From: an uncultured Verrucomicrobiae bacterium
GTDB lineage: Bacteria > Verrucomicrobiota > Verrucomicrobiia > Chthoniobacterales > Chthoniobacteraceae
Direction of reading: 5' to 3'
Length of the DNA: 64,000 nt
Assembly (NCBI GenBank): GCA_963836755.1
Contig: CAWIKF010000002.1
Span: forward strand, 640,001-704,000
Under the pieces are notes generated by a model that saw nothing but the letters and a program-made list of their open reading frames with translations, ran no database searches and had not been told where the DNA came from. A program made the translations under genes and the position numbers. Positions 24,139-41,874 of this stretch are shown here, in pieces (the first letter of the stretch is position 1; the number at the start of each line of letters is the position of its first letter).

Positions 24139-24140
24139 GA

Positions 24141-24314
24141 TTACTTGGTTTCGCGGTGCAATGTGTGCCGGCGCAGGAACGGGTTGTATTTCTTTTTCTC
24201 AAGCCGGCCGGGCGTGTTGAGGCTCTTTTTGTTGCGCGTCGTGATGTAACGCGACGCGGGTTTGCCCTCGGCTTTCGCTTCGGTGCATTCGATGGTGATG
24301 ATGTCTCTGGCCAT
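24141..24314 (-). CDS. rpmG: 50S ribosomal protein L33 (57 aa, missing from the ORF track; single Cys)
   Basis: Manual translation gives [57 protein letters not shown]. Its ATG overlaps the dksA stop (TAATG). Confidence 0.95.
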
Positions 24315-24967: not shown

Positions 24968-25091
24968 AAATGTAAACTGGGGGAGCAAATGATACGCCCG
25001 GGAAAAATTGAGCGCGCATACTTAGCGGCTTTACCAAAGGCGCGCAAGGGGGAATTCCGAAATATTCTTTTCCCGTGATCCGCGCCGGATT

Positions 25092-25886
25092 TCAAGAACT
25101 GGCGCTGGAATAATGGCGTAGCGCAAAATGCCAGAACGCGCGTCCCATTCCGACGCACAACGCAGCGGCGACGCCCATTTGCAGCAGCAGCGGCACGGGC
25201 TGCTCGAATGACCGCATCAACAGCCGCGCCGGAATATTCGCAACGATGATGACCGGGATGAACCAGCTGAAGACAAATTTGAAAACGCCGCGAAACACCG
25301 CGTCCGGATAGCGAGCGATGTTAAACAAGCTGTAGTAACCGTAAATCAAACCTTGCGCTCGGACGATCCAAAACGAAACCGTCGCGAGCGCGAACATGAT
25401 CGAATAGTGAATCGCGACGCCGAGGGAGACGGCGCACAGATAGAGCAGCACCTGCAGCGCGGACGGAACAACATTGAGTTTAACGAGTGAAAACACGACG
25501 ATCGCGATGCCGACGAGGGCATTGACGACGTTGTCCAAACCAAATTGCCGCGTGGAAACCGCGAACTGCGCATCGACCGGCAGCAGCAGCATGAAATCAA
25601 GCCGACCGGTCCGCACCAACTCGGGAAGATTCGCGACATTCACATAAAAAAAAGCCTGGAAAATCTGCCCGATAAGCTGGTGCGTTCCGACGAGCAGCAC
25701 GACCTCCCATTTGGACCAGCCGCCGATTTGGTTCACATACATGAACATCACCTCGATGAAAACAATTTGTCCCACAAACCATAACAGCTCGGTGAACATC
25801 CAAAGAATGAAGTTTGCCTTGAAACTCATCTCTCGAATCACGGAATTCCGCAGCATGATCCAGTAGATTTCGAGGTAGCGTTTCAT
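25092..25886 (-). CDS. ABC-2 family (ABC2_membrane_6-type) permease
   Basis: 6 TM. GGWSKWEV, VRTGRLDFMLLLP and ARYPDAVF motifs. Confidence 0.85.
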   Translation of the reverse strand: MKRYLEIYWIMLRNSVIREMSFKANFILWMFTELLWFVGQIVFIEVMFMYVNQIGGWSKWEVVLLVGTHQLIGQIFQAFFYVNVANLPELVRTGRLDFMLLLPVDAQFAVSTRQFGLDNVVNALVGIAIVVFSLVKLNVVPSALQVLLYLCAVSLGVAIHYSIMFALATVSFWIVRAQGLIYGYYSLFNIARYPDAVFRGVFKFVFSWFIPVIIVANIPARLLMRSFEQPVPLLLQMGVAAALCVGMGRAFWHFALRHYSSASS

Positions 25887-25893
25887 CGCGCGA

Positions 25894-26712
25894 TCACCCG
25901 CCGACCGCCTGATAGCGCCGCACGCCGCGGCTCCACATCAAGCGCGCGAGACTCCACGTCAGCAGCAGCCACCCTGTTTGGATCGCAAGTCCGCTCCACA
26001 ACGAACCTGCGCGAACTTTTTCCAAAAACACCGCGATTGGGAAAAAAAGTTCGTAGGTGAAAGGCAGCCAATGCATGGCGCCTTGCATCCACGCCGGCAT
26101 GATATCGAGAGGAAAAATGTGGCCGCTCAGGAAATATTCGAACGAGTAAAGAATGAAAACAATCGTCGAGATTTCCAGGATCCAAAACGCGAGCATCGCC
26201 AGCGCGTAAGCGACAAAAAATTGAATGAAGCCCGCCATCACGAGCGAGATCGCCGCGAGCGGCCACGTGAGCGGATCGCGCGGGAGCGTGATGTAGCTGC
26301 GGAACCACCAAAAGATCAGCCCGACCGGCACGATCGTCACTAAAGTGTATAACAACCGATAGCTCAAAAAAAGACTGATCCGGTAGTGCAGATAGTTCAG
26401 CGGCTTTGTCAGAAACGCGTTCATCTGCCCGTCGCGAATATCCGCCGCGATCTGCCACTCGTCCTCGGTCGGCGTGACGAGGTTGTCGACGAGGATCGTC
26501 AGCATAAAATAAAAAATCATCGCGTTGAAATCATAGCCGGCGACGCTCGTGCTCCGTTCCTGAAAAATCGCGCGCCAGATGAAAACCGTTCCCGCGAGCG
26601 GCACGAATCCGAAGAGCGCGCGCAGCAGAAAATTCCAGCGGTAGACGAAAGTATTCTGCAGGCCGATGTCGAAAACCTTGAGATATTTTGCGAGAGCCAT
26701 TGCGTGCGGCAT
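25894..26712 (-). CDS. ABC-2 family (ABC2_membrane_6-type) permease
   Basis: YRWNF, IAADIRDGQMNAFLTKP and LSGHIFPLD motifs. Ends RRYQAVGG. Start may be 26700. Confidence 0.85.
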   Translation of the reverse strand: MPHAMALAKYLKVFDIGLQNTFVYRWNFLLRALFGFVPLAGTVFIWRAIFQERSTSVAGYDFNAMIFYFMLTILVDNLVTPTEDEWQIAADIRDGQMNAFLTKPLNYLHYRISLFLSYRLLYTLVTIVPVGLIFWWFRSYITLPRDPLTWPLAAISLVMAGFIQFFVAYALAMLAFWILEISTIVFILYSFEYFLSGHIFPLDIMPAWMQGAMHWLPFTYELFFPIAVFLEKVRAGSLWSGLAIQTGWLLLTWSLARLMWSRGVRRYQAVGG

Positions 26713-26814
26713 GACTTCCTAGCAGCCCCTAGCGAAAAGCGAAAGCGGCACGTCAGCGCGAAAGGCGGACGTCTTTTTTAACTGCGGCTCATCGAGCCGG
26801 AATCGGCGCTGTGT

Positions 26815-27036
26815 CTACGCCAGTCTGCTTTCGCCGTCGGCCGCGGGCATCCATTTCCACGTCTGCTCGCCGAGCCAGACGCAGGCGATGTCGAGCGCGT
26901 CGGGATGCTGGTTGCTCCAGATCGTGTAGTGAAATCCTGTCTCGTCCTCATATCCTTCAGGCGCGCGCTCCAGCATCACGATGAGCGCGACCATTGAAAG
27001 CGATGAAGCGAAGAAAAATCCGGCGAGTATCAACAT
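26815..27036 (-). CDS. Small single-pass membrane protein with APEGYEDETGFH motif (73 aa)
   Basis: ATG 27036, an N-terminal TM, then RAPEGYEDETGFH. Has its own sigma54-type promoter. Confidence 0.6.
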   Translation of the reverse strand: MLILAGFFFASSLSMVALIVMLERAPEGYEDETGFHYTIWSNQHPDALDIACVWLGEQTWKWMPAADGESRLA

Positions 27037-27051
27037 AATCGCGGAAAAAGG

Positions 27052-27067
27052 AGCAAAGTGCGTGCCC
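27052..27067 (-). promoter_or_regulatory. Sigma54 (-24/-12) promoter
   Basis: The minus strand reads GGGCACGCACTTTGCT. This is GG-N10-GC and matches TGGCACG-N4-TTGCW at all positions but the first. Confidence 0.7.
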
Positions 27068-27114
27068 GAAGTGCGAAAAAAGTTTCGCTTTTTAAACAAA
27101 AGGTTGGCGCGCGC

Positions 27115-28026
27115 TCACCTTGGAATTTTCGGCTCCTCATCCCGCTCTTTCCAGCGCGCCAGCGATTGCTCGTGCAGATGACGGCGATGAAAAAACCGCG
27201 GCAGCACGCCATATTTTGGGCTGAAGAGAAATGCGAGGCAGAAAATTCCGCCGAGCACCAGCACGATGCACGCGCCGGACGGAAGATTGAGCCAGTAGGA
27301 AAGAAACAGCCCAAGCGTGGAGCCGGCCATGCCGAGAATTCCGCCGCCCCAAAACATCGCGCTGAAGGAATTGGAAAAAAGATAGATCGTCGCCGCGGGC
27401 GCAGTCAGCAGGCCGAGCGCGAGAATCACTCCGACCGCTTGCAGCGACGAAATCATCGAGAGCACGAGCAATGAAAGAATGAGGTAATTGAGCTTCGTGA
27501 CCGGCACGCCCTGCGTCGCCGCGATTGCCGGCTCGAACAGCATGACCAGCAGCGGCCTTTGCAAAGCGACCAGCGTCCCGAGCGTGAGAAAACTGATCCA
27601 GTAGATCGTCCACAAATCGGAATCCGCGAGGCCGAGAATGTTGCCAAACAAGTAATGATGCAGCTCCACGTGCACGCGCGAAAAACTCAGCAGCACGATG
27701 CCGAGCGAAAATGCGACGGTGTAAAGAATGCCGAGCGACGTGTCTTCCTTCACGCGAGAGCTGCGCGAAATCAGCTCCGAGCCGAGCGCGACGAGCAGCG
27801 CCGCGATGAGTGCGCCGATGAAAAGTCCTGTCGGCGCGAGGCCGAAAAGCATCACGCCGATCGCGAGGCCTGGCAGCAGCGAATGCGAGAGCGCATCAGC
27901 CATCAGCGCGAGCCGGCGCAGCACGATGAACGCGCTCAGGAAACCATTAGTGAAGCCGATCAGCGCGCAGCCAAAAAGCGCGCGCTGCATGAATTCGTGG
28001 CGAAAAGGTTCAAGCAGCCACGTCAT
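27115..28026 (-). CDS. Metal (Zn/Mn) ABC transporter permease, ABC-3 family (ZnuB/MntB-like)
   Basis: LRRLALMADALSHSLLPG, YLFGNILG and LQAVGVIL motifs. Confidence 0.92.
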   Translation of the reverse strand: MTWLLEPFRHEFMQRALFGCALIGFTNGFLSAFIVLRRLALMADALSHSLLPGLAIGVMLFGLAPTGLFIGALIAALLVALGSELISRSSRVKEDTSLGILYTVAFSLGIVLLSFSRVHVELHHYLFGNILGLADSDLWTIYWISFLTLGTLVALQRPLLVMLFEPAIAATQGVPVTKLNYLILSLLVLSMISSLQAVGVILALGLLTAPAATIYLFSNSFSAMFWGGGILGMAGSTLGLFLSYWLNLPSGACIVLVLGGIFCLAFLFSPKYGVLPRFFHRRHLHEQSLARWKERDEEPKIPR

Positions 28027-28756
28027 GAGAAATGCCGGAAAATGCGTCGGTATCGTAAGTGCGCCTGATGTTTTCCTCGGTAAAAATTTCCTGCGTCGGG
28101 CCGAACGCGATGAGCTCGCCGTTGAGCAAAATCACTTCGTCAAAAAGATCGGGCACTGTTTTCAAATCGTGATGCGAGGCGATGACGAGATTGCCGCGCC
28201 GCGCGATGGCGCGCAACGTCTCGCGCATCATTTCCTGCCCGCCCTTGTCGAGCCCGGTGAACGGTTCATCGAGGAGAAAAACATGCGCCTCCTGCGCGAG
28301 CGCGCGCCCGAGAAAAGCGCGCTGCTGCTGCCCGCCGCTCAACGCGCTGATCTGGCGATCCGCGAGGTCGGTGAGGTGGAGCGACGCGAGCACATCGGCG
28401 ACAATGCGTTCATCATTTTCGCCAAAACGCTTCCACCATCCGAGCCGCATGAAACGCCCGAGCTCGACCACGGCGCGCACTGTGATCGGGAAATCCGAAT
28501 CCTGCGTGCTGCGTTGCGGCAGATACGCAAGATCGGTCGCCGAGCCGCCGGAATTGTGGCCGTGAAATCTGATCGAGCCGCTCTCAGCCGGCAGCAGGCC
28601 GACCATTGTTTTAAATAAAGTTGTCTTGCCCGCGCCGTTCGGGCCGAGCAGCGCGACGCAGGTGCCGCATTTCATTTCCATCGTGAGATGATGCAACGCG
28701 GGAACTCGGTTGTAGGAGACGGTCAGGTCGCGAATTTCCAGTCGATGTGCGGACAT
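28010..28756 (-). CDS. Metal ABC transporter ATP-binding subunit (ZnuC/MntA-like)
   Basis: Walker A GPNGAGKTT, AYLPQ, signature LSGGQQQR, LLDEPFTGLD and SHHDL. Confidence 0.93.
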   Translation of the reverse strand: MSAHRLEIRDLTVSYNRVPALHHLTMEMKCGTCVALLGPNGAGKTTLFKTMVGLLPAESGSIRFHGHNSGGSATDLAYLPQRSTQDSDFPITVRAVVELGRFMRLGWWKRFGENDERIVADVLASLHLTDLADRQISALSGGQQQRAFLGRALAQEAHVFLLDEPFTGLDKGGQEMMRETLRAIARRGNLVIASHHDLKTVPDLFDEVILLNGELIAFGPTQEIFTEENIRRTYDTDAFSGISHDVAA

Positions 28757-28762
28757 ATTTTT

Positions 28763-29179
28763 TCAGGGTTGAAACGTCAGCACTTCGTCCACCGGCCCGC
28801 TCGCCCAGACGACTCGCTCCAGCTTCGAGCCGTTCTCCGGCGTCACCGCGAGCTTCACTGCGCCGGGCTCGGAAGGATCTTTGAATTTTCCCTGGAGCAC
28901 GAGATCCACGCCTTCCGGTGGGAAGTCCATTTTTACATTTTCGCTCACTGGCGCGGTGCCGGCGTCGCCTTTCCAAATGACGTTGCCGAGATGCTTGACG
29001 ACAAATTGAAACGGTCCGCTTGTCGCCGTGATTTCGAGATGCAGCGAACTCTCGGCAGCGGCAGGCGCGGCCACGACTGCGGCCGCGGCGCGTCTGCTCG
29101 TGAGCTTCCGCAGCGGCACGAACATCAATGCCATGAGCGCCACGATCACCAGCAATCTGAGAAAGGGCGACCCTTGCAC
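28763..29179 (-). CDS. Hypothetical membrane-anchored periplasmic protein inside the metal ABC operon
   Basis: 138 aa with an N-terminal TM and a beta-rich domain. 6-nt gaps to both neighbours. Confidence 0.7.
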   Translation of the reverse strand: MQGSPFLRLLVIVALMALMFVPLRKLTSRRAAAAVVAAPAAAESSLHLEITATSGPFQFVVKHLGNVIWKGDAGTAPVSENVKMDFPPEGVDLVLQGKFKDPSEPGAVKLAVTPENGSKLERVVWASGPVDEVLTFQP

Positions 29180-29185
29180 AAGCCT

Positions 29186-30082
29186 CTATTTCAGCGCGTC
29201 CACGATCGTCGTCACGTTGTGCTTCATCATTCCCTCATAAGTCGACGCATCGCCGGTGCCAAGCCCATCCGCGTAAAGTGTGCCGCCGATTTTTGCGCCC
29301 GATTCCCGCGTGATTTCCTTCGTCACTTTCGGATTTTCAATGTTCTCGAAAAAGATCGCCTTCACGCCTTGTTTTCTAATCGTGTCGATGATGTCGGAAA
29401 CTTTTTTGTTCGATGGCTCATCCTCCGTGCTCACGCCTTCGATGGAGTAAATCGTAAAGCCATTTTCCCTCGCGAAATATTGGAATGCATCGTGCGAAGT
29501 CACCAGCTTCCGGCTGTCGCGCGGCAGCTCCGCCACCTTGTGTTTCACCCAGCTTCGCAACGCTTCGAGCTTCGCAATGTAGGCCGCCGCATTTTTGTCG
29601 TATTCCGCCTTGCCGGCCGGATCGAGCTTGATCAATTCATCGCGCACGACCTGCGTTGCCTTTTCCATGTTTGCGATGCTGTGCCACCAATGCGGATCCT
29701 CGATCATCCCGCCGACAACCGTAGCCTTTTCACCCTCCTCAACCTTCATTTTCAGCGACGGAAATTTGTCACCCACCTGGACGAGATCGCCTTTCGTGCC
29801 CGCGCTTTCCTTCAGTTTTGTGAGATAACCTTCCATGTGTTTGCCCGACGCGAGCACGAGCTGCGAATCGCCGACTTGTTTAAGATCCGCGGGCGTCGGC
29901 TCGTATTCATGCGGATCGACTCCGGCCCGCACGAGTCCTGTCACCTCGATCTGGTCACCGCCGACCGCCTGCGCAAGTGCCGTCAGGATTGTCGAAAAAG
30001 TCGTCACCTTGATTTTGTCCGCGGCTGAAGCCTGGCCGAGCGCGGACGCCAGAAACAAAAGCGGCAGCAGGATTTTTCTCAC
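29186..30082 (-). CDS. Metal ABC transporter substrate-binding protein (TroA/ZnuA family, His-His-His-Asp ligands)
   Basis: Signal peptide. DPHEYEP, DPHWWH, TSHDAFQY and LYADGL motifs. Confidence 0.93.
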   Translation of the reverse strand: MRKILLPLLFLASALGQASAADKIKVTTFSTILTALAQAVGGDQIEVTGLVRAGVDPHEYEPTPADLKQVGDSQLVLASGKHMEGYLTKLKESAGTKGDLVQVGDKFPSLKMKVEEGEKATVVGGMIEDPHWWHSIANMEKATQVVRDELIKLDPAGKAEYDKNAAAYIAKLEALRSWVKHKVAELPRDSRKLVTSHDAFQYFARENGFTIYSIEGVSTEDEPSNKKVSDIIDTIRKQGVKAIFFENIENPKVTKEITRESGAKIGGTLYADGLGTGDASTYEGMMKHNVTTIVDALK

Positions 30083-30112
30083 GAATCAAACGTAGAACCG
30101 TGTCGAACTAAC

Positions 30113-30126
30113 GCAAGCAAATTGCA
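30113..30126. promoter_or_regulatory. Putative Zur/Fur-family operator GCAA-N5-TTGC(A) upstream of the metal-binding protein gene
   Basis: GCAAgcaaaTTGCA lies 31-44 nt upstream of the GTG at 30082. The same motif recurs twice in the fur/peptidase divergent region. Confidence 0.6.
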
Positions 30127-30161
30127 AAAGGAAATCAACTTTCGATAAAAGTTCCGTGCCT

Positions 30162-30743
30162 TCAATGCGCTCCCTGCAAGACAACCTCCGAAAGCGCCAC
30201 GGGACTGCCTTTTGCGCCGGGATAAATCTCCACAATCTCCAGCGTCATCCGGTCGCCAGAATGCACCATGATGTCGTCAAAACTGAAGTGCTGCCAACGG
30301 CGCGTGTCGGCAAACTGCACGTAATAAAGCGGCTTGCCGTTGTAATAAAACCTCGCCTTTTTCACGCGTGCAAAATTCTTCCATGTCTCCTGCGTGTCCC
30401 AATTGCCGTCGATGACATCCAGTCCATAAAACGGCACATTGTCCTCCATTTCCGCCGGAAGTTTTTTCGGAAAAAAGAAAGTCAACTTTGCACCGATGCC
30501 GGTGGGATCCGTCCACGGCGGCGACGGTTTATCATCGTTTAACACAGTAACTTTGACAGGAGTTGTGCCTTTCGCCGGAACTGCCTGCACAGTCCATGGA
30601 AAGGCGCATTTCATCGAGCATCCGCCCATCAATTCCGGGATGACCGGAGTGCCGATCGTTGGTTTCAAAGTCGGCAGATCATCGGCGAAAACCGCCGTCG
30701 CGGTGAGCCAGATCGCGAAAAGAAAAATGTTCTGACGTTTCAT
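30162..30743 (-). CDS. Secreted beta-sandwich protein (discoidin/NADase-type glycan-binding-domain-like) with GCSxxC motif
   Basis: Signal peptide. GGCSMKC, W..N.RVKK and LEIVEIYPG..ALSEV motifs. Overlaps the ATPase stop (ATGA). Confidence 0.55.
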   Translation of the reverse strand: MKRQNIFLFAIWLTATAVFADDLPTLKPTIGTPVIPELMGGCSMKCAFPWTVQAVPAKGTTPVKVTVLNDDKPSPPWTDPTGIGAKLTFFFPKKLPAEMEDNVPFYGLDVIDGNWDTQETWKNFARVKKARFYYNGKPLYYVQFADTRRWQHFSFDDIMVHSGDRMTLEIVEIYPGAKGSPVALSEVVLQGAH

Positions 30744-32692
30744 TTTATTCCCTCGAAGCGCAGAAGACGCGCGCTGTTAAAGATCACGAAGAACGCGCCG
30801 AATTCATGCAAAAAAGCCGCAATGATTGGCGTGATGATGCCGATGCTCGACAGGACGATCGCGGCGATGATGAACAGAAATCCGTAGAGCATATTTTGGT
30901 TGATGATTCGCAGCGCCTTCTCGGAAAGCGCGAGAAAATCCGGGATCCGGCTGAGGTCGCTGGCCATGAGCGCGATGTCGGCGGTCTGGATCGCGACGTC
31001 GCTGCCGAGCGCGCCCATCGCGACACTCAAATGCCCGGCCGCCAGCGCTGGCGCGTCGTTCACGCCGTCGCCGACGACCATGACTTTGTGCCCTTCGTTC
31101 TTGAGTCGATGCACGGTTGCGAGTTTTTGCTCCGGCAAACATTCGGCGGCGAATTCACTGAAGCCGATATTTTTCGCGATGGATTCGGCGACGCTGCGGC
31201 GATCTCCCGTGAGCATGACGAACCGCGCGATGCCTTGGTTGCGCAGCGTCGCGCCGAGGTTTCGTGATTCCTCGCGAAGCGTGTCGCTGAGATAAATGAC
31301 GCCCGCAAATTCGCCGTCCACCGCGATGTGCAGCGCGCTCAGGTCGCCTGCATTTTGATTTTCGTTTTCCATTTTGACCGCGTGTTCCCGCAACCACGCG
31401 GCGCGGCCGACTAGCACTTCGCGGCGGCCAACTTTTCCCGAAACGCCGTGCCCGTGTTTTTCCTGCACGTCCGCGGCTTCGTGAAATTCCAGCGCGCGTG
31501 TGTGCGCGGCCGCGAGCACCGCGCGCGCGACGGGGTGCGTCGAATGCTGCTCGACCGCGGCAGCCAGCGAGAGGATTTCCCGGTCGGGCATTCCGTTGTG
31601 AGCGTGAATTTCCGCGACGCGCAATTCGCCCGTGGTCAGCGTGCCGGTTTTGTCAAAAACGACGGTGTCAATTTCGTTTGCCGCTTCAAAAAAGCGGACG
31701 CTTTTGACGAGGATGCCGAGTCGTGACGCGGAGGCGAGCGCGGCGACCATCGCGGACGGACCTGCCAGCACGAAGGCGCACGGGATGCTGACCACGATCA
31801 CCGAAATCGCTCGCTGCACATCGTGTGTAAAAAAAAGAACGAAGCCCGCGATGAGCAAAATGAGTGGCGAATAATAACGCGCATATTCCTCAGTCAGCCG
31901 GACGATTGGCGCGCGCGTTTGCTGTGCTTCCTCGACGATGTCTTTGACCCGTCCCAACACAGTGTTAGCACCTGTTTTCGTCACCTCCATTTCGATCAAG
32001 CCGGTGAGATTCGACGTGCCTGCGAAAATGTTCGCACCCTCGCCGACCTCGACTGGCAAAGCTTCTCCGGTGATTGTCGCCTGGTTTACGGTGGACCATC
32101 CGCTCAGCACGCATCCGTCGGCGGGAACCGTGTCGCCAGGCCGGATCCGCACCCGATCGCCGGCGCGCAGCGATTCCGCATCGACGAGTTCCTCCTCTCC
32201 GCCGCGCACGCGCCGCGCGCTCGCTCGCGCGAGATGAAGCAGGCTGTTGATGGCCGCATTTGTGCCGAGCATGCTGCGATCCTCGAGCACGTGGCCGAGC
32301 AAAAGAATCACCGCGACGATGCCGGCGGTGACGTAAAGTCCGCTCGCGAAACAGGCCAGCACCGCGAGCGTGATGAACTGGTTCATGTAAAACTCCGTGT
32401 TGTCGGCCTCGCGTGAAAACAGGCCGCGCAGCGCGTCGCGCAAAATCGGAATCGCCGCTAAAACCGCGCCAGCCATTGCCGCGGCGCTTGCCAATTCCGG
32501 TTGCTCCGGCCGCAACCAACGCAACAGCCCGCTGAGTATCAAAAAAACCGCTCCGCAAAAAACAAACAGCAGTCGAAGGCGCAAGCCGCCTTCGCTGTGA
32601 TCATGCCCGCAGCACGCGGGTCCGTGCAGATGCTCGTGATCGTGCGCAGCCTCGTCGTGATGATGATGTTCCTCGATGGCCGTGGCGTTCAT
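30740..32692 (-). CDS. Heavy-metal P1B-type ATPase with His-rich N-terminus and atypical IPC metal motif
   Basis: TGE, DKTGTLT, HP, MLTGD and GDGVNDAP motifs. TM motif VVSIPCAF. Last TM has HEFG. N-terminus EEHHHHDEAAHDHEHLHGPACCGHDH. Confidence 0.93.
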   Translation of the reverse strand: MNATAIEEHHHHDEAAHDHEHLHGPACCGHDHSEGGLRLRLLFVFCGAVFLILSGLLRWLRPEQPELASAAAMAGAVLAAIPILRDALRGLFSREADNTEFYMNQFITLAVLACFASGLYVTAGIVAVILLLGHVLEDRSMLGTNAAINSLLHLARASARRVRGGEEELVDAESLRAGDRVRIRPGDTVPADGCVLSGWSTVNQATITGEALPVEVGEGANIFAGTSNLTGLIEMEVTKTGANTVLGRVKDIVEEAQQTRAPIVRLTEEYARYYSPLILLIAGFVLFFTHDVQRAISVIVVSIPCAFVLAGPSAMVAALASASRLGILVKSVRFFEAANEIDTVVFDKTGTLTTGELRVAEIHAHNGMPDREILSLAAAVEQHSTHPVARAVLAAAHTRALEFHEAADVQEKHGHGVSGKVGRREVLVGRAAWLREHAVKMENENQNAGDLSALHIAVDGEFAGVIYLSDTLREESRNLGATLRNQGIARFVMLTGDRRSVAESIAKNIGFSEFAAECLPEQKLATVHRLKNEGHKVMVVGDGVNDAPALAAGHLSVAMGALGSDVAIQTADIALMASDLSRIPDFLALSEKALRIINQNMLYGFLFIIAAIVLSSIGIITPIIAAFLHEFGAFFVIFNSARLLRFEGIK

Positions 32693-32702
32693 GAAAGTTG
32701 CA

Positions 32703-33842
32703 TCATTCTTCGTCGTCGTTCAGCCGATTTTTTGACGGAGCTGCCGGCGTTTTATTTGATGGCAAAGGTTCGGACGGCAATGGCTCCACGCCAGTCTCAG
32801 GGCCGGGTTCCGCCGGTTCGGCTTGTTCCGCCGGCCTGGACTCGACCGTTTGCCCGATTTGCGGCGCGAGCAGCAATCGCACTTCGCCATTTGCATTCGG
32901 CATCACTGTCGTGATGCGCACCTTCGCGAGAGTGGTCTGAATCATCTCATTATAAAGGCGCGCGCGGATCAGTTGCGGATTCGCCTTGTATTCATGCAGC
33001 AGCGCGAGAAACGCCGACGCCTGCCCCTGCGCCTGCGACACCTGTTCCTGCGCGAACGTATCCGCCGCCGACTTCACGCGATACGCCTCCGCCTGCGCTT
33101 CGGGAATCATCGAAGCGTGATAGCTATTTGCCGGTTCGATCAACGTCTTTGCCTCCACTTTCGCGCTGATCACATCTTGAAAAGCGGCGGCCACCTGCGC
33201 CGGCGGATCAATCTCGCGTGTTTCGATCGCGAGCAATTGCACACCGAGGCCGAGCCGGTCGATCTCCGCCTGCGACAGCCGTTGCGTTTCGCGGCTGACG
33301 AAATCGCGGCGCGTCGTGAGCACATCATCGACCGACATTCCCGCGATCACTCTGCAAACGTTTTGATAAACAACCGCATCGAGCAGCTCATCGCGATCCG
33401 TCGCGCCAAAAACGTAGTCGGCAGCGTTCGAAACTTGATAGCGCGCGGAAAATTTTGCGCGGATGATATTTGCGTCGCCCGTCAACGTGTAAGGATCATT
33501 CACCGGATGCAGCGTCGCGTTGAATTCGAGCGACTGCGGCGACGCATTCGCCGGCTCCGCCCAATCCGCGAGAGTCCGCTCCTGCACGGTTTTCGCGTCG
33601 ATCAAAACCACTTCATCGATCGGTGCCGGCAAAGCGAAAAGCAATCCGGGCGGATGAACTTCCGGCAGCAATTTTCCAAAACGCAGCACCAATCCCGCCT
33701 GGCTCGGGCCGACCATCGTGATGCCCGATGCGAGATAAACCAGCACCAGCGCTGCCATTCCCCAGCGCAGCACGCGGATGCTCGAGCGGAGCGCCGCGAG
33801 GATCGCGTGCGCGGAAAAAAGCGCGTCTTCTTTTTGCTTCAT
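32703..33842 (-). CDS. HflK-like SPFH/band-7 protein
   Basis: N-terminal TM. GLVLRFGK..PPGLLFALPAPIDEV, LTGDANII, PPAQVAAAFQDV and a coiled-coil ending ARLYNE. Confidence 0.88.
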   Translation of the reverse strand: MKQKEDALFSAHAILAALRSSIRVLRWGMAALVLVYLASGITMVGPSQAGLVLRFGKLLPEVHPPGLLFALPAPIDEVVLIDAKTVQERTLADWAEPANASPQSLEFNATLHPVNDPYTLTGDANIIRAKFSARYQVSNAADYVFGATDRDELLDAVVYQNVCRVIAGMSVDDVLTTRRDFVSRETQRLSQAEIDRLGLGVQLLAIETREIDPPAQVAAAFQDVISAKVEAKTLIEPANSYHASMIPEAQAEAYRVKSAADTFAQEQVSQAQGQASAFLALLHEYKANPQLIRARLYNEMIQTTLAKVRITTVMPNANGEVRLLLAPQIGQTVESRPAEQAEPAEPGPETGVEPLPSEPLPSNKTPAAPSKNRLNDDEE

Positions 33843-34759
33843 GGCGCGGCTTTCGCTGGCGCGGGACCCGGCTCTGCGCCTTGCGATTTCAGCAGATCGA
33901 ACGGTTCGGAATTTGTGTCGAGCACGATCGTCGTGTTTTGGTTGACGACTTTTTTCAAAGCCTCCACGTCGCGCTGGAACTTATAAAAATCAGGATCCTG
34001 GCTGTGCGCCGCGGCGTAAATGTGCGCCGCCTCCGCCTCGGCCTTGCCGTGAGTTTCCGCGGAATATTTATTCGCCTCGGCGATGATGACGGTTTTCTCC
34101 GCATCGGTCTGCGCACGGATTGCATCGGCTTCCTGCTGGCCTTCCGCGCGATAGCTCGCGGCGAATTGCGAACGTTCCGCGCGCATCCGTTCAAAGACGT
34201 AACGCGTGTTTACTTCCGGCAGCGTGAGCCGCTGAATCCCGACTTGTTCGATCGAAATTCCAAACGAATCGCGCGCCTGCGCCGAGGTGCTCTGCGCGAT
34301 TTTGTTTTCGATTTCCGTGAGCCGCACTTCGTCCGGATTTACCGAGACAAGCTGGTTGAAATCGTAAGTGCCGAGCACCGTATTTTTGGCGCTGCTGACG
34401 AGGCCGTCGAGTTTGCTGCGTGCATTGTCGACATTGCCGATCGCTTCCAAAAACTTCCGCGGATCCACGACGCGCCATGCGACAAAAACGGGCACGATGA
34501 CATTGCGTTTGTCCTTCGTGAGCGTTTCGGAAATGCGCGTCTGGTAAAAGTTCAGGCGCGCGTCGAATCGGTTCACATTCTCGATCGGCCACGGCCATTT
34601 CAAATAAAGTCCCGGCTGCTCGATGACTCGCGCAGGGCTGCCAAATTCGGTGACGACGACTTTTTCATTCTGCCGCACTTGAAATGCGATCATGAAAAAA
34701 ATGAGCACGGCGACGACGATCAATGCGACGGCGAGGCGGACGAAAATATTGGATTTCAT
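33839..34759 (-). CDS. HflC-like SPFH/band-7 protein
   Basis: VVTEFG..PGLYLKWPWP, TLTKDKRNVIV, WRVVDP, VFERMRAER and DPDFYKFQR are HflC signatures. Confidence 0.9.
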   Translation of the reverse strand: MKSNIFVRLAVALIVVAVLIFFMIAFQVRQNEKVVVTEFGSPARVIEQPGLYLKWPWPIENVNRFDARLNFYQTRISETLTKDKRNVIVPVFVAWRVVDPRKFLEAIGNVDNARSKLDGLVSSAKNTVLGTYDFNQLVSVNPDEVRLTEIENKIAQSTSAQARDSFGISIEQVGIQRLTLPEVNTRYVFERMRAERSQFAASYRAEGQQEADAIRAQTDAEKTVIIAEANKYSAETHGKAEAEAAHIYAAAHSQDPDFYKFQRDVEALKKVVNQNTTIVLDTNSEPFDLLKSQGAEPGPAPAKAAP

Positions 34760-34774
34760 GAATTTGTTTTTTGT

Positions 34775-36589
34775 TTACGGCGGCGGCAGATCGCTTGTGT
34801 TGCGCAGGTCGAGATAAACCTGGTCATGCGCGGCGGCGGGGCCATCGAGAATAACTTTCGTCGGCTTCACGAGCGCGTCCTGCAATGTGTCGAGACGGAT
34901 GCGCGCTCGAAACAAAGCCGGGTTTTCTTCCTCCGATTTTGCAACTGCGAGGAACTGCGAAGTTTCGCCCTCCGCCTGCGCAACGCGTTGTTTCGCATCG
35001 GCATCGGCTGTCACTTTTTCCCGCGTCGCCTGCGCCTTCGCGGCGGGCATCGTGTCCGCGCGATATGCGCGCGCGATGTCGATCATGCTTTCCTTTTGTT
35101 CCTCCGCGCTGACGACTTCCTCATACGCCGGCGCGACGTCCACGGGCGGATGAATGTCTTTCATTCCGACGAACAAAATCTGCAGACCGAGGCCGAGACG
35201 ATCAACTTCACTTTGTAAAACAGTTTTTAACTGTGTGGTAATAGCGGCGCGCTCCGTGGTCATAATTGCAAAGCTGTCGCGCGAGCCGGTGATCTGGATG
35301 AGCTTTCGCTCGGCGAGGCTCGCCAGCGCTTCATCCGGGTCGTTCGTCGTTTGCAAAAAAGCCACCGGATCGGCGATGCGATAAAAGATAGGCACGTTGA
35401 TCGTGAGCAGCGATTCGCCATTGCCGACGAGCAGATTTTTTTCGCCCTCCGCATGTTTTTCCGTCCAAAGCACCGGCCCGCTCAGGTCCTTGTCGAAGCC
35501 GAGCGAAACGCTTCGCACGAGCTCGGTGGGGATGATCTGCACGTCGGCAAACGGCCGCGGCCAGGTGAAATGCAAACCCGGCTGCAGCGGGATCGGTAAA
35601 TATTTTCCGAGCAAAATTTCCACGCCGCGGCTGCCGGCGGGAACCGCTGTGAAGCAGGTGGAAAACCAGACGAGTGCGCCGGTCGCGAGCAGCATCGGCA
35701 CGGCGATTCCGCGGACGAATTCGAAGAACCAAAGCTCGCTGACTTTCGCGCCGACGAGATTTTCAAAGCTCGCGACTGCGGCGCGCCAGCCTTTGCCGTG
35801 GCCGAATCCCGCGTCGAGGAAAAGGCTCGTGCCGGCGGGCGTGCTCACATCGCGCAACGCGACGGGTTGGTAAAATCTCGCACCGAAGCGGACGAGCGTT
35901 TCGGCGGCGAGAACGATCGTCAGCGCGAGCAGCGGCCAGCCGAGAAGCGCGCCAAAATCGCGCGTCGTCATCAAGTCGATAAAGACCACCGCAGCCGTCG
36001 CGAGTGAAACCCAAAACGCGATGTGCGTGAGATGGAGCAGGCCATCAAGCGCAGCGGTTTTTAATCGCGATTGAATGGCATCGGCGAACTGCCGCAGGAA
36101 AAAAAGCATGCATCCCGAGGCGAGCGCGATGACCGCGATCATTTGTAAAACTGAGCGCTGCGCGTTGCCGAGCGCGCCGCCCGCGCTGTCGCGAAAAACC
36201 GCGAAACCGATCATCAGACCGCACACCAAAATCACCCATTGCCAGCGGCTCGCGAAGTCCGGCAGGAAAGGCGTGGCGCTCACCGTGGGATCTGAGCTGC
36301 CGATGCTCTCGCGCTTTTCGAGCTCGCGATTGTATTCGAGATTTCGCCGGTCGCGGACGGCGCTGCGGAAGAAAAAATAATGGATCGCGCCGACGATGCT
36401 GCACCACGCAAAAAAGCTGCCGATGCCCGCCAGCAAAGGATTCGGAGCGGATTGAGCGATCGTGCCGAAGCAGGCCGCCGCGACGATGAACAGCAGCGCG
36501 ATCAGTAGCGCAGCGCGTTGCAGGCGCGTGAGTTCGCTCGCGGTCAACTGCGGACCGCTTTCGATTTTTTCCAAGATTTCGCCTGGCAT
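34775..36589 (-). CDS. HflK-like SPFH protein fused to an N-terminal polytopic (about 7-8 TM) membrane domain
   Basis: About 310 aa of hydrophobic helices, then PGLHFTWPRP, YRIADP, DIHPPVDVAPAYEEVVSAE and a coiled coil. Confidence 0.85.
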   Translation of the reverse strand: MPGEILEKIESGPQLTASELTRLQRAALLIALLFIVAAACFGTIAQSAPNPLLAGIGSFFAWCSIVGAIHYFFFRSAVRDRRNLEYNRELEKRESIGSSDPTVSATPFLPDFASRWQWVILVCGLMIGFAVFRDSAGGALGNAQRSVLQMIAVIALASGCMLFFLRQFADAIQSRLKTAALDGLLHLTHIAFWVSLATAAVVFIDLMTTRDFGALLGWPLLALTIVLAAETLVRFGARFYQPVALRDVSTPAGTSLFLDAGFGHGKGWRAAVASFENLVGAKVSELWFFEFVRGIAVPMLLATGALVWFSTCFTAVPAGSRGVEILLGKYLPIPLQPGLHFTWPRPFADVQIIPTELVRSVSLGFDKDLSGPVLWTEKHAEGEKNLLVGNGESLLTINVPIFYRIADPVAFLQTTNDPDEALASLAERKLIQITGSRDSFAIMTTERAAITTQLKTVLQSEVDRLGLGLQILFVGMKDIHPPVDVAPAYEEVVSAEEQKESMIDIARAYRADTMPAAKAQATREKVTADADAKQRVAQAEGETSQFLAVAKSEEENPALFRARIRLDTLQDALVKPTKVILDGPAAAHDQVYLDLRNTSDLPPP

Positions 36590-36598
36590 GACGCGCGG

Positions 36599-38521
36599 CT
36601 ATTTATCCAAATGCTTCTCCAAAAATGCTTCCATCTTTGTGTAAAAATCGATCCGGTTTTCCGGATTTTCGAATCCGTGACCCTCGTCCATTTTCACCAT
36701 GTATTCGACAGGTCGTCCGTTCTTTTTGAGCGCGGCGACGATCTGCTCGGCCTCGGCGTGATTGACGCGCGGGTCGTTGTAGCCTTGCGCGATGAAGAGC
36801 GGCGCCTTTATTTTATCCGCCGCGAAAAGCGGGGAGCGTGAGCGCAAAAAATCCTTGTCCGTCGCGGGATTGCCGACGCGGCGATACATCACATCGCGAA
36901 AAGTTTCCCAATACGGCGGGATCGTGTTCATGAATGTGAGCAGGTTTGAAATGCCGACGTAATCGACGCCGCACGCGAAGACGTCCGGTCGAAATGCGAG
37001 TGCCGCGAGCGTGGCGTAACCGCCGTAGCTGCCGCCATAAATGCCGATCCGTTTTTTGTCGGCGATGCCGTTGGCGACGATCCAATCGACGCCGTCGATC
37101 AAGTCATCGAGCATCTTGCCGCCCCACTCGCGATCGCCCGCGTGCAGGAACTTTTTTCCATATCCAGTCGAGCCGCGGAAGTTGATTTGCAGCACAGCGA
37201 AACCGCGATTGGCGAGGAACTGAATTTCGGGATCGTAGCCCCAATCATCGCGCGCCCACGGGCCGCCGTGGACGACGAGCACTGTCGGCAGATTTTTTTC
37301 CGGCACGCCTTTTGGCAGGCTCAAGTAGCCGTGAATCGTGAGGCCGTCGCGGCTTTGAAACGAAACCGGTTTCATGTCGACGAGCTCGTCGGGTTTCAGC
37401 CACGGGCGCGGACGATAGAGAAACTTTGAGTCGCCGGTGTCGCGGTCGTAGAGATAGGTCGCGCCGGGATCGGTGGGCGAGTTGAATGCAATGATCCATT
37501 TGCGCTCGTCATCATCGCTGCTGCGAAAGAGCGGCTCGCCGTCATGGATTTTTTGGACGGTCGCAAGATCCTTCGCAAACTGCGGATCAAAGGTTTGATA
37601 GACGACCTTGTCCTTATTGTAAGCGACCGCGAGCAGCTTGTGAGTTTTGTCGCTGATCAGCACATCCTCGATGTCGTAGTGCGGATCCTGCGCGATCAAA
37701 GTTTCCTTTCCCGAATCAATCTCGAGCTTCACGAGCCGCGTCGTGTCGGCGTTGCGCGCATCGGTGAAATATAAAAAAGAACCATCCTCGCTGAATGCCT
37801 GGATCGCCGCATTTTCTTCATCGGTGTAAGTGCCGAGCACGCGGAACGGTCCGGTGCCGGAATCGCGCACGCGGATCTGCGTTTTGCCGCCTTCGATCTG
37901 CGCGGCGCATGCGCGGAGGACGCCATGCGTATCGGCATACCAGCTATCCACATCGCCGGGATTTTTTTCCAAAAGCTGCAGCTCGCCCGTGGAAATCTGC
38001 AGATGGTAAACGTCGAAATATTTCGGGTCGCGCGCGTTGAGCGTGATCAGCGCCTCATCGGGATGCTCGCGCGGAAGATCGATGATTTCTGCGCGCGCGC
38101 CTTTGTGCGGAGTCAGGTCAAGCGCGGGCTTGTCCGGCTGCGAAGGATCGGCGCGATAGAGATGGTAATTTTCATTCCCGCCCTGGTCCTGCTCGTAAAT
38201 CAAATAGCGGCCGTCGCGCGTCCACGAGAAATGAAAAATCCCGCGCTGCGTGTCGTGAGTCACCGCCTTCGCCTTTGCGAAATCATCGCCGACTTCGCAG
38301 ACGAAAACATTCATCCGATTTTTTTCCGGCGCGAGAAAAGCGTAGCGCTTCCCATCCGGCGAAAGATCGGCGCTGCTGATCTTCGGGTTGTTAAAAAAAT
38401 CGGACACCGGAATCTGCGGCGGCTTTTCCATGGCGAAGAGGAGTGACGAGAGACTGCAGACGAGAAGCGCCGCAAAAAAAATCGGACGATGACGCAAATT
38501 AAAATTTTTACAGCGAGTCAT
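36599..38521 (-). CDS. Secreted S9 family (prolyl oligopeptidase/acylaminoacyl) peptidase
   Basis: Signal peptide and beta-propeller. HGGPW, GGSYGG nucleophile, QGYNDPRV (Asp) and DEGHGF (His). Start approximate. Confidence 0.92.
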   Translation of the reverse strand: MTRCKNFNLRHRPIFFAALLVCSLSSLLFAMEKPPQIPVSDFFNNPKISSADLSPDGKRYAFLAPEKNRMNVFVCEVGDDFAKAKAVTHDTQRGIFHFSWTRDGRYLIYEQDQGGNENYHLYRADPSQPDKPALDLTPHKGARAEIIDLPREHPDEALITLNARDPKYFDVYHLQISTGELQLLEKNPGDVDSWYADTHGVLRACAAQIEGGKTQIRVRDSGTGPFRVLGTYTDEENAAIQAFSEDGSFLYFTDARNADTTRLVKLEIDSGKETLIAQDPHYDIEDVLISDKTHKLLAVAYNKDKVVYQTFDPQFAKDLATVQKIHDGEPLFRSSDDDERKWIIAFNSPTDPGATYLYDRDTGDSKFLYRPRPWLKPDELVDMKPVSFQSRDGLTIHGYLSLPKGVPEKNLPTVLVVHGGPWARDDWGYDPEIQFLANRGFAVLQINFRGSTGYGKKFLHAGDREWGGKMLDDLIDGVDWIVANGIADKKRIGIYGGSYGGYATLAALAFRPDVFACGVDYVGISNLLTFMNTIPPYWETFRDVMYRRVGNPATDKDFLRSRSPLFAADKIKAPLFIAQGYNDPRVNHAEAEQIVAALKKNGRPVEYMVKMDEGHGFENPENRIDFYTKMEAFLEKHLDK

Positions 38522-38625
38522 GAATCGGTCGGAAGAATGTGGTTTGAAGTCCATTGATGATTGGCAAGAAGCCTTTGCGACGAAGGATCGCGCGGTCTGC
38601 AAAAAGAGTCCCTGCCGGTAAAATC

Positions 38626-38640
38626 GCAAGAAGCTTGCAT
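38626..38640. promoter_or_regulatory. Putative Zur/Fur-family operator GCAA-N5-TTGCAT
   Basis: GCAAgaagcTTGCAT lies in the divergent intergenic region, about 105 nt upstream of the peptidase start. Confidence 0.5.
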
Positions 38641-38728
38641 TAATCTTCCCGCGAATGAATGTCAACTTTCGACAGGTGCCACGAAAGAAGGAGAGCATCG
38701 GAAAAAACGAGGGTGTTCAAATGTTTCG

Positions 38729-38742
38729 TGCAAGTAAATTGC
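38729..38742. promoter_or_regulatory. Putative Zur/Fur-family operator TGCAA-N5-TTGC
   Basis: TGCAAgtaaaTTGC lies about 52 nt upstream of the fur-family GTG. It differs from the 30113 box at only one of 13 positions. Confidence 0.55.
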
Positions 38743-38793
38743 GTCGCGAAAATTTCACCGTTGAGATTCCGGTAAAGTTCGAGTCAATTACAA

Positions 38794-39246
38794 GTGTCCG
38801 TGAAAAAGAAAGAAGCTGAAGCAAAACTAAACTGGGCAGTGGAGGAGTGCCGCGTGCGAGGACTGCGCCGCACGCACGCCTTGCGCGAACTGCTCCGTTA
38901 CCTTCTCAAAAATAATCGCCCGGTGAACTGGACGATCCTCAGCAATGAACCGGAAATCCGCGCTTGCTGCGATCCATCCAGCGCCTTTCGAGTCTTGGTG
39001 AAGCTCGAAGAGATCGGACTGGTGCGACGCATGGGTTCACCCGATCGCTCCTACTACTTCGTTCTCACGCTTCCGGGCGAACATCACGACTACCTGATCT
39101 GCAAAGGTTGCGGAAAGATCGATGACCTGGACATCAATTGTCCGGTCGAAGTCTTGGAAAAAAAGATCAGCCGGAAGAGTGGCTACAGCGAACTTTACCA
39201 CGAGCTAGACTTCTTTGGGATCTGCCCAAAGTGCCAGGCTGCCTGA
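38794..39246 (+). CDS. Fur family metalloregulator (Zur-like by context)
   Basis: GLRRT..., wHTH, HHDYLICKGCGKI and FFGICPKC (two CxxC). Confidence 0.9.
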   Translation: MSVKKKEAEAKLNWAVEECRVRGLRRTHALRELLRYLLKNNRPVNWTILSNEPEIRACCDPSSAFRVLVKLEEIGLVRRMGSPDRSYYFVLTLPGEHHDYLICKGCGKIDDLDINCPVEVLEKKISRKSGYSELYHELDFFGICPKCQAA

Positions 39247-39437
39247 GGAAAGCCACCGCAGGAACGGCGTTTCTCTTGGTGAAGAGTTCACCAGAGTTGG
39301 TGGTGGAGCGGGCGGTAACTTTGTCAGTCTGAAAATGTTTGCAGAGTCGCAACTCGAAAACATCACCGCCCGCGCTCACTCAACTTATTGGGACAACCCG
39401 GAAGCCAATCGCGAAGCTTCCGAGTAGGTAATGGGTT

Positions 39438-39821
39438 CTACGACGCGGGAGTTGCGGACGCTTCTTTTTTGCGTGCTGCCCAACGGGCTTTCATCGCAGC
39501 GGCCAGCTTTGCGCGGCCTTGAGGAGTAAGACCGCCTTTTTTCTTGGGAGCTTTTTTTGCTGCGGCAGGCTTTGGCGCGGACGCGGTTGCTTTGCCTTTG
39601 ATCTTAGCCCAGCGCGCCTTTGCAGCCGCGGCAATCTTTGCTCGCGAAGCCGCACTCATCTTGCTACGGCGGGCTGTCTTCTTGGCGGGGGCAGATGGAC
39701 TCGAAGTCGAATCCGACCGGCCGAGGAGTTTGTTGAGTTTGTTTTGGAGACTTTCAATCTGCTCGTGGAGGTTAACAGCTTCCTTGAGAGATTGAAGTGA
39801 TAGTGAGGTGGTATTAGCCAT
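39438..39821 (-). CDS. Small basic Lys/Ala-rich protein (candidate nucleoid-associated protein)
   Basis: N-terminal coiled coil plus two copies of RAK(I/L)AAA(A/M)KARWA. Confidence 0.75.
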   Translation of the reverse strand: MANTTSLSLQSLKEAVNLHEQIESLQNKLNKLLGRSDSTSSPSAPAKKTARRSKMSAASRAKIAAAAKARWAKIKGKATASAPKPAAAKKAPKKKGGLTPQGRAKLAAAMKARWAARKKEASATPAS

Positions 39822-39967
39822 ATCGTTGAGCTATAGCTTCTACCTAGCTCGCGTCAATACATTTGTTATAATTCATTAGCACGAGCTTTAGTTCGATTCG
39901 TGACTGAACTATGAAGGCCAGCTTGTCGAAATGAGATCTTGTGGTTAACTGCAGAGCTCTTTCGTCG

Positions 39968-40660
39968 ATGAAATACTCACGCTGGCTTTTGCTTTTGGTT
40001 TTTATGGCGAGCACCACAGCTATGGGACAAGCTCCAGCACCGATGAAAGAAGTCGACGCCAACATCTTTCAACTCGGCGACATCCGGATCGACAAGCGGG
40101 CGAGGAGCGTGACATTCCCCGGCATGATCAACATGCGGGGCGGCAGCCTTGAGTATCTACTCGTGCAAGAACAAGGGAAGACGCATGAGAGTTTACTCTC
40201 AACAAAGGTCGAGCCTTCGGAATTGCATGTGGCGATGCTGCTGCTCGGCGCGAAGGATTCCGCCGGAGATGGAAAGGGGCCTCCGGAGCAGATTGACCAA
40301 ACATTTTTAAAACATGCGCCGAAGTTGCAAGGCGCGGAGATCGAAATTCGCATCACATGGGAACTTGATGGGCGACAGACGCAGGCTCGCGCGGAGGATT
40401 TGCTTTTGCGCAAGAAGAAGCCTTTGCAGCAAGACGGAGCCTGGATCTACAACGGCTCAATCATCGTCGACGGCAAATTTCTAGCGCAGGCCGAAGGGTC
40501 GATTGTTTCCATCGTGACGGATCCCACAGCGCTTATTAATAACGAACGGCTCGGAAATGATGACGACCAGATCTGGACTCCGCGCGCTGACAAACTCCCG
40601 CCATTGAACACGCCGGTGAACATCACCTTCAAGCTTCTGTCTAAAAATACTTCGAAGTGA
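39968..40660 (+). CDS. Secreted hypothetical protein (YdjY-like domain)
   Basis: Signal peptide. LEYLLV...GKTHESLL....PSELHVAMLLLG and WIYNGS motifs. Coupled to the next gene (GTGA). Confidence 0.6.
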   Translation: MKYSRWLLLLVFMASTTAMGQAPAPMKEVDANIFQLGDIRIDKRARSVTFPGMINMRGGSLEYLLVQEQGKTHESLLSTKVEPSELHVAMLLLGAKDSAGDGKGPPEQIDQTFLKHAPKLQGAEIEIRITWELDGRQTQARAEDLLLRKKKPLQQDGAWIYNGSIIVDGKFLAQAEGSIVSIVTDPTALINNERLGNDDDQIWTPRADKLPPLNTPVNITFKLLSKNTSK

Positions 40661-41799: not shown

Positions 41800-41874
41800 T
41801 TGGCGCGGAAGCTTGTGTTTCGCGAGGCTGGTGCTTAGGTTTTTGGTGACGCCCCCCGAAATTCCAGAGATCCG

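Follow-up and report, generated by a model that had tools for sequence, protein, structure and literature searches.

A conserved cassette of three SPFH genes and a P1B-type ATPase beside a Znu-type importer in a Verrucomicrobiae bacterium, related to the Pseudomonas hmtA locus

The 64,000-nucleotide stretch analysed here (the window, whose position numbering is used throughout) is part of contig CAWIKF010000002.1 of an uncultured Verrucomicrobiae bacterium (genome G000, assembly GCA_963836755.1, 3.18 Mb, 96% complete; contigs of this genome are named C1 and C2). It carries a run of genes in which three SPFH-domain proteins and a P1B-type ATPase stand next to a Znu-type metal importer. The conserved unit within this run is a cassette of four genes, coding for a polytopic HflK-like protein (K1), an HflC-like protein, a second HflK-like protein (K2) and the ATPase, and it is found across the phylum and in Proteobacteria. 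The initial annotation considered the machinery as a candidate for an undescribed one, but layout and ATPase clade match the cassette to the hmtA locus published for Pseudomonas. The locus itself is known, its mechanism unexamined; the copy in the window is a variant in which the pump is retuned and a regulon is visible. We consider it likely that the SPFH trio has the pump as its client and that metal starvation derepresses the copy in the window.

For the survey of the phylum, the ATPase was used as query against 301 genomes, and the matches contained a clear upper score group. Among the 150 listed matches, 40 loci, hand-picked for family spread and long open reading frames (ORFs), were opened. 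SPFH genes adjoin the ATPase in 27 of the 28 opened loci that score at least 413 bits (26 with all three genes, one cut by a contig end), whereas 9 of the 12 opened loci with weaker P1B matches have no SPFH neighbours; the other three are fusions (see below). This difference indicates linkage beyond chance. The order is intact in 73 of 80 loci from proteobacterial genomes. The other seven show contig-end cuts, split genes or mis-ordering from an overlapping ORF call; three proteobacterial genomes (L177, L198, L235) have cassette genes divided over two ORFs. All four plasmid loci that were opened (Paraburkholderia, Klebsiella, Rhizobium and Burkholderia) have the same order. Among 201 genomes of the order, K1 occurs in 10 and an ATPase of at least 549 bits also in 10, with nine genomes common to both; in the two odd genomes, the ATPase is cut at a contig edge (G378) or K2 lies beside the ATPase at a contig end (G386). 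The association of SPFH genes and ATPase, which had been noticed at this single locus, is thus kept across phyla.

The genes that had been described, ten on the minus strand and a divergent one for a Fur-family protein, are all present, with matching families. The features are:

38794..39246, plus strand: divergent Fur-family repressor, probably the local zinc-uptake regulator (PF01475, E 5.5e-10)
38726..38746, no strand: operator-like palindrome GCAA-N5-TTGC, weaker copy (pattern at 38730; pattern match, under the 13-bit listing threshold)
38622..38642, no strand: operator-like palindrome between the Fur gene and the operon (pattern at 38626; 21.0 bits with a matrix trained on relatives only)
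36599..38521, minus strand: S9 serine peptidase, probably secreted, a local passenger (start inferred; PF00326, E 4.7e-57)
34775..36589, minus strand: K1, with a six-helix membrane domain, an anchor helix and an HflK-like SPFH domain (PF01145 at residues 316-508)
33839..34759, minus strand: HflC-like SPFH protein of the cassette clade (TIGR01932, 172 bits, above cut-off)
32703..33842, minus strand: K2, HflK-like SPFH protein of the cassette clade (TIGR01933, 175 bits, above cut-off)
30740..32692, minus strand: P1B ATPase of the HmtA clade (TIGR01525, 547 bits)
30162..30743, minus strand: secreted protein with a discoidin-like (NADase-type glycan-binding) domain (PF25302, NF047619)
30109..30129, no strand: operator-like palindrome directly 5' of znuA (pattern 30113-30125; 22.9 bits)
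29186..30082, minus strand: ZnuA/AztC/TroA-type metal-binding protein (PF01297, E 8.5e-80; best NCBIfam model AztC, below cut-off)
28763..29179, minus strand: 138-aa membrane-anchored protein of no named family (no Pfam or NCBIfam match)
28010..28756, minus strand: ZnuC-type ABC ATPase (PF00005; best NCBIfam models MntA/AztA, below cut-off)
27115..28026, minus strand: ZnuB-type ABC-3 permease (PF00950, E 2e-65)

The genes are tightly packed, with gaps of 9 nt (S9 to K1), 15 nt (K1 to HflC) and 10 nt (K2 to ATPase) and with 4-nt overlaps of HflC with K2 and of the ATPase with the discoidin-like gene. The gap between the latter and znuA is 79 nt and contains an operator-like palindrome of its own. 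The ORF of the S9 peptidase opens at 38698, and the start near 38521 was chosen to match a signal-like hydrophobic stretch. There is no Rfam match at gathering score in positions 24000-42000. The importer had been described as a four-gene system; three genes indeed code for ABC transporter parts, but the fourth is that for the 138-aa protein.

In P. aeruginosa, the genes PA2439 to PA2434 (PaFlo5, PaFlo6, PaFlo7, PA2436, HmtA and PA2434) show the same succession of a long HflK-like protein, HflC, an HflK-like protein and a P1B ATPase. The correspondence was drawn via a P. paraeruginosa locus (L234) and the published PAO1 gene order, so that identity with PAO1 HmtA is one of layout and clade. 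Locus L234 has the published layout: the genes for a long K, C and K are followed by a short ORF, the ATPase gene and a gene for a 181-aa protein. Its ATPase is 38.9% identical to that of the window over 594 aa, with 36.6% for HflC and 24.9% for K1. The best 120 homologues listed for the Burkholderia pump include no protein from P. aeruginosa. The window and the hmtA locus share the ATPase clade, a His-rich pump devoid of an HMA domain, two sequence motifs in K1 (W-x3-H and His-Pro-Pro, HPP) and the zinc-starvation context. They differ in the metal site of the pump (IPC and His-Glu in the window, CPC and His-Asn in HmtA), which makes the same substrate as for HmtA less likely and leaves the homology of the cassettes unaffected. 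Unlike the hmtA locus, the window lacks PA2436- and PA2434-like genes at this place, has a Znu-type importer directly after the cassette genes and has its own Fur-family gene and a different operator.

The Pseudomonas genes PA2434-PA2439 (three HflK/C-family genes and hmtA among them) are 5.6- to 14.4-fold up in a znuA mutant (PMC4542158), and their proteins become more abundant when zinc is depleted (mixed significance; PMC11761036). Binding of Zur to the PA2439 promoter requires zinc (PMC8531726). HmtA has been described as a Zn/Cu importer based on overexpression (PMC8456098, PMC10393844, PMC11923076). In a 2026 study, in which the trio was named PaFlo5-7 and the operon was noted in a few distant bacteria, the paFlo5-7 deletion lacked the hflKC phenotypes (tobramycin, swimming, pyocyanin), and the word "ATPase" is absent from the main text (PMC13086221). 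Zinc papers label PA2437-39 as FtsH modulators (PMC9431628, PMC11761036). No proposal of the trio as partner of the pump was found in the titles and passages of open-licence PMC and bioRxiv literature, and cobalt papers on B. cenocepacia and P. aeruginosa do not mention Hfl proteins or HmtA in their main text (supplements could list them). The studies of HmtA appear not to have included its SPFH partners.

The SPFH trio resembles the HflK/HflC cage around FtsH in E. coli (PDB 7vhq, 9cz2, 7wi3) in its SPFH fold and long helices. It differs by having three subunits, one with a six-helix membrane domain, by lacking linkage to hflX or ftsH, and by having the pump as its fixed partner gene. K1, HflC and K2 form clades separate from canonical HflK and HflC (support 0.993 for the cassette K2 clade); the proteins of eight canonical hflK-hflC pairs group by themselves (support 1.0 and 0.995 for the two clades), to the exclusion of those of the window. 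Of 201 genomes of the order, 52 have canonical-type HflC at 210 bits or above (51 when the unpublished G450 is excluded), and the eight such loci that were checked are two-gene hflK-hflC loci. Both kinds coexist in G357, G413 and G378. The genome under study has four SPFH genes, the trio and one elsewhere; only the cassette kind of HflC and no canonical hflKC was found. The initial annotation correctly stated that neither ftsH nor hflX is in the window: the single FtsH gene is on contig C1, and hflX is at C2:878537, about 175 kb beyond the window.

K1 has seven hydrophobic segments (predicted model with a mean local distance difference test score, pLDDT, of 77.7), and its C-terminal half matches the chains of the HflK/C cage in structure (Foldseek E 7.5e-16; Z 17.1). 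Residues W375, H379 and H480, which belong to the W-x3-H and HPP motifs, are invariant in 51 of 51 sequences, reaching to Pseudomonas, with the loci pre-selected by patterns that include these motifs. Two more divergent K1 members lack these marks, as does canonical HflK. The six-helix domain weakly resembles cation diffusion facilitator (CDF) zinc transporters. The best non-SPFH structural match of the N-terminus is human ZnT3 (Z 12.4, root-mean-square deviation 4.7, 215 aligned residues), with a Z score that is within the range common for helical bundles. A CDF profile matches one K1 subgroup only (probability 18.6, E 0.0013) and not the K1 of the window, and PF01545 matches one of 51 K1 members (E 0.0063). 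No invariant His or Asp occurs in the six N-terminal helices across the 51 sequences, and an Atlas search with this domain gave no usable match. Named K1 homologues are from Chthoniobacterales and other Verrucomicrobiota.

In three loci (L049:8140-11109, L051:5854-10818, L053:8440-11451), the ATPase is fused to an SPFH domain and the genes for HflC and K2 follow. The SPFH domain carries the W-x3-H and HPP motifs of K1 and begins about 20 residues past M6, and the pump part has CPC and a His-Gln site. These fusions are an analogy with shared ancestry and suggest, rather than prove, a scaffold-pump unit.

The pump of the window has the P1B hallmarks (DKTGT, TGE, HP, GDGxND, xPC in M4, helices MA/MB plus six helices), a His-rich N-terminus, no HMA domain, IPC in M4 and His-Glu in M6. 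Its subclade is uniform: a non-cysteine xPC occurs in 30 of 30 pumps (IPC 23, LPC 3, MPC 3, VPC 1) and His-Glu in M6 also in 30 of 30, compared to CPC in 48 of 52 and His-Glu in none of 52 other linked pumps. The 30 pumps are kin, so that this swap counts as one event, not 30. Invariant in 51 linked pumps are P304, C305, N600, H629, E137 and Y274. Pumps of type P1B-2 have a Lys in M5 and an Asp in M6, while a His-Glu-Gly motif in M6 is typical for P1B-4. The respective M4 signatures are CPC and SPC (PMC13460109). Assignment to P1B-2 (ZntA/CadA) was rejected because of the IPC, the lack of the M5 Lys and the His-Glu in M6. Assignment to P1B-4 was rejected because of IPC and HEFG and because the pump is apart from an SPC pump (L054) in the tree. 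His-Glu-Gly was seen in one unlinked SPC pump, and the resemblance of the window pump to P1B-4 looks convergent. The tree is a quick IQ-TREE computation without bootstrap from 50 of 101 aligned pumps (omitting L008, L009, L010, the KdpB-like copy of L045 and the split L177). One clade of 37 pumps, 35 linked and two unlinked, includes the Pseudomonas pumps (support 99 in the Shimodaira-Hasegawa-like approximate likelihood ratio test, SH-aLRT); within it, the subclade of the window is sister to the proteobacterial one (support 83). A complex prediction for ATPase residues 30-650 with K1 residues 14-358 scored 0.07 and 0.09 (mark 0.32), which is evidence neither way.

The window has palindromes of the type GCAA-N5-TTGC at 30113, 38626 and 38730. 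Close kin carry them at corresponding places; that upstream of znuA has the same position in L058, L060, L137 and L064. A first operator matrix, built from nine sites of relatives only, yielded 10 genome-wide matches of at least 16 bits, compared to 0-4 in three shuffles. The intergenic top matches precede znuA, the cassette operon and a TonB-receptor operon (tandem pair at C2:936484/936528). With a second matrix, built from five sites of the genome itself, 6 of 29 own-clade loci were positive (0.8 in shuffles), as were 3 of 32 other loci from the phylum (1.0) and one of the 40 proteobacterial loci tested of 84 (1.0); four of the six own-clade positives had supplied training sites for the first matrix, so that the two tests are not independent. 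The region 3' of the tandem operator (C2:936484-942500, L150:4485-10491) codes for a TonB-dependent receptor, exbB, exbD, tonB, a DUF318-type permease and a TIGR03943 subunit. The TonB receptor and the two-permease pair adjoin the cassette in kin, and this operon is probably the outer-membrane arm of the regulon. A Bufferin-like MNIO peptide-maturation cluster (C2:622680-625250, L154:5682-8251; BufB model above cut-off) has a 16.9-bit operator-like match within the start of its last gene.

The Fur-family protein has two CxxC motifs. It shows 31-34% sequence identity to seven cassette-linked Fur proteins of kin and 21-24% to the other two of the genome. All NCBIfam Fur/Zur/PerR models are far under their cut-offs (Zur 29 bits vs 167). 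The operator precedes znuA, the TonB receptor and, in kin, COG0523, and from these predicted targets we infer a Zur-type zinc regulator. The cassette and the Znu importer appear to share one repressor. The initial annotation preferred metal starvation over detoxification, and the shared operator and the neighbouring uptake genes, together with the induction of the Pseudomonas counterpart by zinc depletion, point in this direction.

The other neighbours are variable, and the idea of a single ten-gene machine is not supported. The S9 peptidase was rejected as a machine part: in 145 other loci, no S9 gene was found next to the cassette, and orthologues of it (72-74% identical) are located elsewhere in G351 and G421, the two closest genomes having S9. 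The Znu genes were rejected as a fixed part of the cassette, as they are next to it only in a minority of loci outside close kin. The link is lineage-specific: the complete run of K1, C, K2, ATPase, znuA, small gene, znuC and znuB occurs in L058, L060, L136 and L137. The importer resembles the ZnuABC/AztABC/TroA-type systems under Zur in having a binding protein, an ATPase, an ABC-3 permease, an upstream operator and a His3-Asp ligand set (His, His, His and Asp from the motifs DPH, DPH, SHD and YAD). It differs by the extra 138-aa protein, which has the same place in four close kin and for which Atlas clusters contain only hypothetical proteins from Verrucomicrobiota. All equivalog models are below cut-off, and the family does not settle zinc versus manganese. 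The discoidin-like gene occurs in 3 of 29 own-clade loci, there 5' of K1, and its product is an accessory of close kin only. Genes for N-acetylmuramoyl-L-alanine amidases recur in the metal-uptake neighbourhood of own-clade loci (L059, L063, L064, L066, L071, L073, L136).

In many other members of the phylum, the cassette sits within an ABC-2-type operon. In L020, L021, L023-L026, L031, L034, L036, L038 and L040, genes for an ABC ATPase of about 390 aa and for proteins of about 475 and 540 aa without Pfam match come after it, and sometimes a gene for an ABC-2-like permease comes before it. In the window, two ABC-2 family permease genes (PF06182; 25092-26712, minus strand) are just 3' of znuB; no adjacent ATPase gene was seen, and the pair is absent beside the cassette in kin. 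The Fur gene is adjoined by a gene for a 127-aa Lys/Ala-rich protein without Pfam match (39438-39821, minus strand). Positions 39941-43395 (plus strand) code for a 239-aa protein without Pfam match and then for two secreted-looking proteins, both with weak matches to the C-terminal part of squalene-hopene cyclase. A homologue of the 380-aa protein from this region also flanks the cassette in L058, L060 and L137.

We propose, tentatively as far as the direction of transport is concerned, that the locus is a zinc-starvation module whose pump transports inward and backs up Znu. A shortage of zinc would release the divergent Fur-family repressor from the GCAA-N5-TTGC operators, and the distant TonB receptor, the Znu-type importer and the cassette would be switched on. 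K1, HflC and K2 would then assemble into a periplasm-facing SPFH ring of the HflK/C type, with the co-encoded HmtA-clade pump rather than FtsH as the client that it may physically enclose. The role of membrane adaptor probably falls to the six-helix domain of K1, and the two invariant histidines of K1 in the periplasm are a likely site of metal hand-over. The pump would give zinc a second way into the cell next to Znu; in view of the IPC/His-Glu site, cobalt is a possible alternative. Starvation induction, Zur binding and the import-like phenotype are taken by analogy from the literature on the Pseudomonas counterpart.

Several points weigh against this proposal. One genome (G289; L042:7657-10881, L043:8610-10583) has two cassette-clade pumps without an SPFH gene in the surrounding DNA, and the fused ATPases belong to a neighbouring pump lineage in the tree, not to the cassette clade. 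A metal-uptake marker was detected next to the cassette in only 14 of 29 loci of its own clade, in 2 of 32 other loci from the phylum and in 11 of 84 from Proteobacteria; the queries used may overlook distant homologues. The operator matrix is not clean, several high-scoring matches being intragenic. The predicted model of the pump (pLDDT 87.7) has the ordinary fold of P1B ATPases, which are mostly exporters, and the adjacent high-affinity importer makes a second importer look redundant. In Pseudomonas, hmtA mRNA was low and not zinc-repressed in one study (PMC8531726), and import by HmtA awaits confirmation according to a review (PMC10393844). The HmtA result may not carry over to the differing metal site of the window pump. 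As no canonical hflKC was found in the genome, the trio could also serve its FtsH.

A scaffold-pump unit under starvation control is also compatible with an outward pump, which would deliver cytoplasmic zinc into the SPFH chamber for insertion into enzymes of the periplasm or membrane, at a time when Znu removes zinc from the periplasm. This would fit the ordinary P1B architecture with its invariant E137, C305, N600 and H629, the His-rich N-terminus on the cytoplasmic side and the histidines that K1 keeps invariant in its periplasmic SPFH domain; the pump would not be redundant with the adjacent importer, and amidase_3-type enzymes are found beside the cassette in seven own-clade loci. However, no conserved client enzyme travels with the cassette, overexpression of HmtA is cited as leading to more cellular Cu and Zn and to hypersensitivity (PMC10393844), and HmtA serves as an importer control (PMC11923076). 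We regard outward delivery as rather unlikely. The pump might instead be a safety valve, co-expressed with the importers and expelling off-target Co, Cu, Cd and Fe that enter during zinc starvation, with the SPFH ring clustering and stabilising it. A precedent is the mycobacterial PacL-Ctp effluxosome, where operon-encoded membrane scaffolds are needed for the clustering and stabilising of P1B pumps (PMC13460109). This likeness implies no homology; the PacL proteins are small single-helix DUF1490 proteins that act in the cytoplasm in metal export under excess. The non-cysteine xPC with His-Glu recalls P1B-4 exporters, and a Ni/Co importer and FeoB are neighbours in single loci; but the window pump does not group with the SPC pump, and the HmtA phenotype is sensitivity, not resistance (PMC10393844). 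We regard a safety valve as improbable.

The trio may also act as an HflK/C specific to starvation, forming a cage around the zinc protease FtsH and tuning membrane proteolysis, with a pump that is just co-regulated. This follows the annotation used in print (PMC9431628, PMC11761036), HflC and K2 are above the NCBIfam cut-offs, and the genome has one FtsH and no other HflK/C that was found. Against it stand the clades of the cassette proteins, which are apart from the canonical ones and coexist with them, the lack of an HflC match of either kind in 139 of 201 genomes of the order, the paFlo5-7 deletion, which is unlike hflKC loss (PMC13086221), and the ATPase-SPFH fusions. There is no FtsH match in 12 loci checked, eight of which are canonical hflKC loci. 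We consider an FtsH cage very unlikely. It is tempting to speculate, with little expectation, that the trio builds an antechamber on the periplasmic side of the pump: the ATPase would be docked by a CDF-derived domain that has lost transport activity, a ring of invariant K1 histidines would hold the metal at the outer mouth, and the SPFH cage would be a true transport subunit that sets direction and selectivity of the pump.

With the proposed zinc-starvation module, two open questions meet, the role of bacterial SPFH proteins beyond HflK/C and whether a P1B ATPase can import metal. The scaffold-pump link is unexamined in the searchable portion of the literature (open-licence PMC and bioRxiv). 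Particular to this locus are the swapped metal site of the pump and an operator that is common to the operon, znuA and the TonB-receptor operon and is kept in close kin. Further particulars are the invariant Trp-x3-His and His-Pro-Pro of K1 with its weakly CDF-like membrane domain, and the fusions in a related pump lineage. If the antechamber exists, the machine would have a second, retuned version in the IPC/His-Glu clade. The operator provides a first candidate zinc regulon for this soil-type lineage of Verrucomicrobiota, and the co-inheritance across phyla, the fusions and the named residues (H379 and H480 of K1; C305, H629 and E630 of the pump) make the scaffold-pump idea directly testable.

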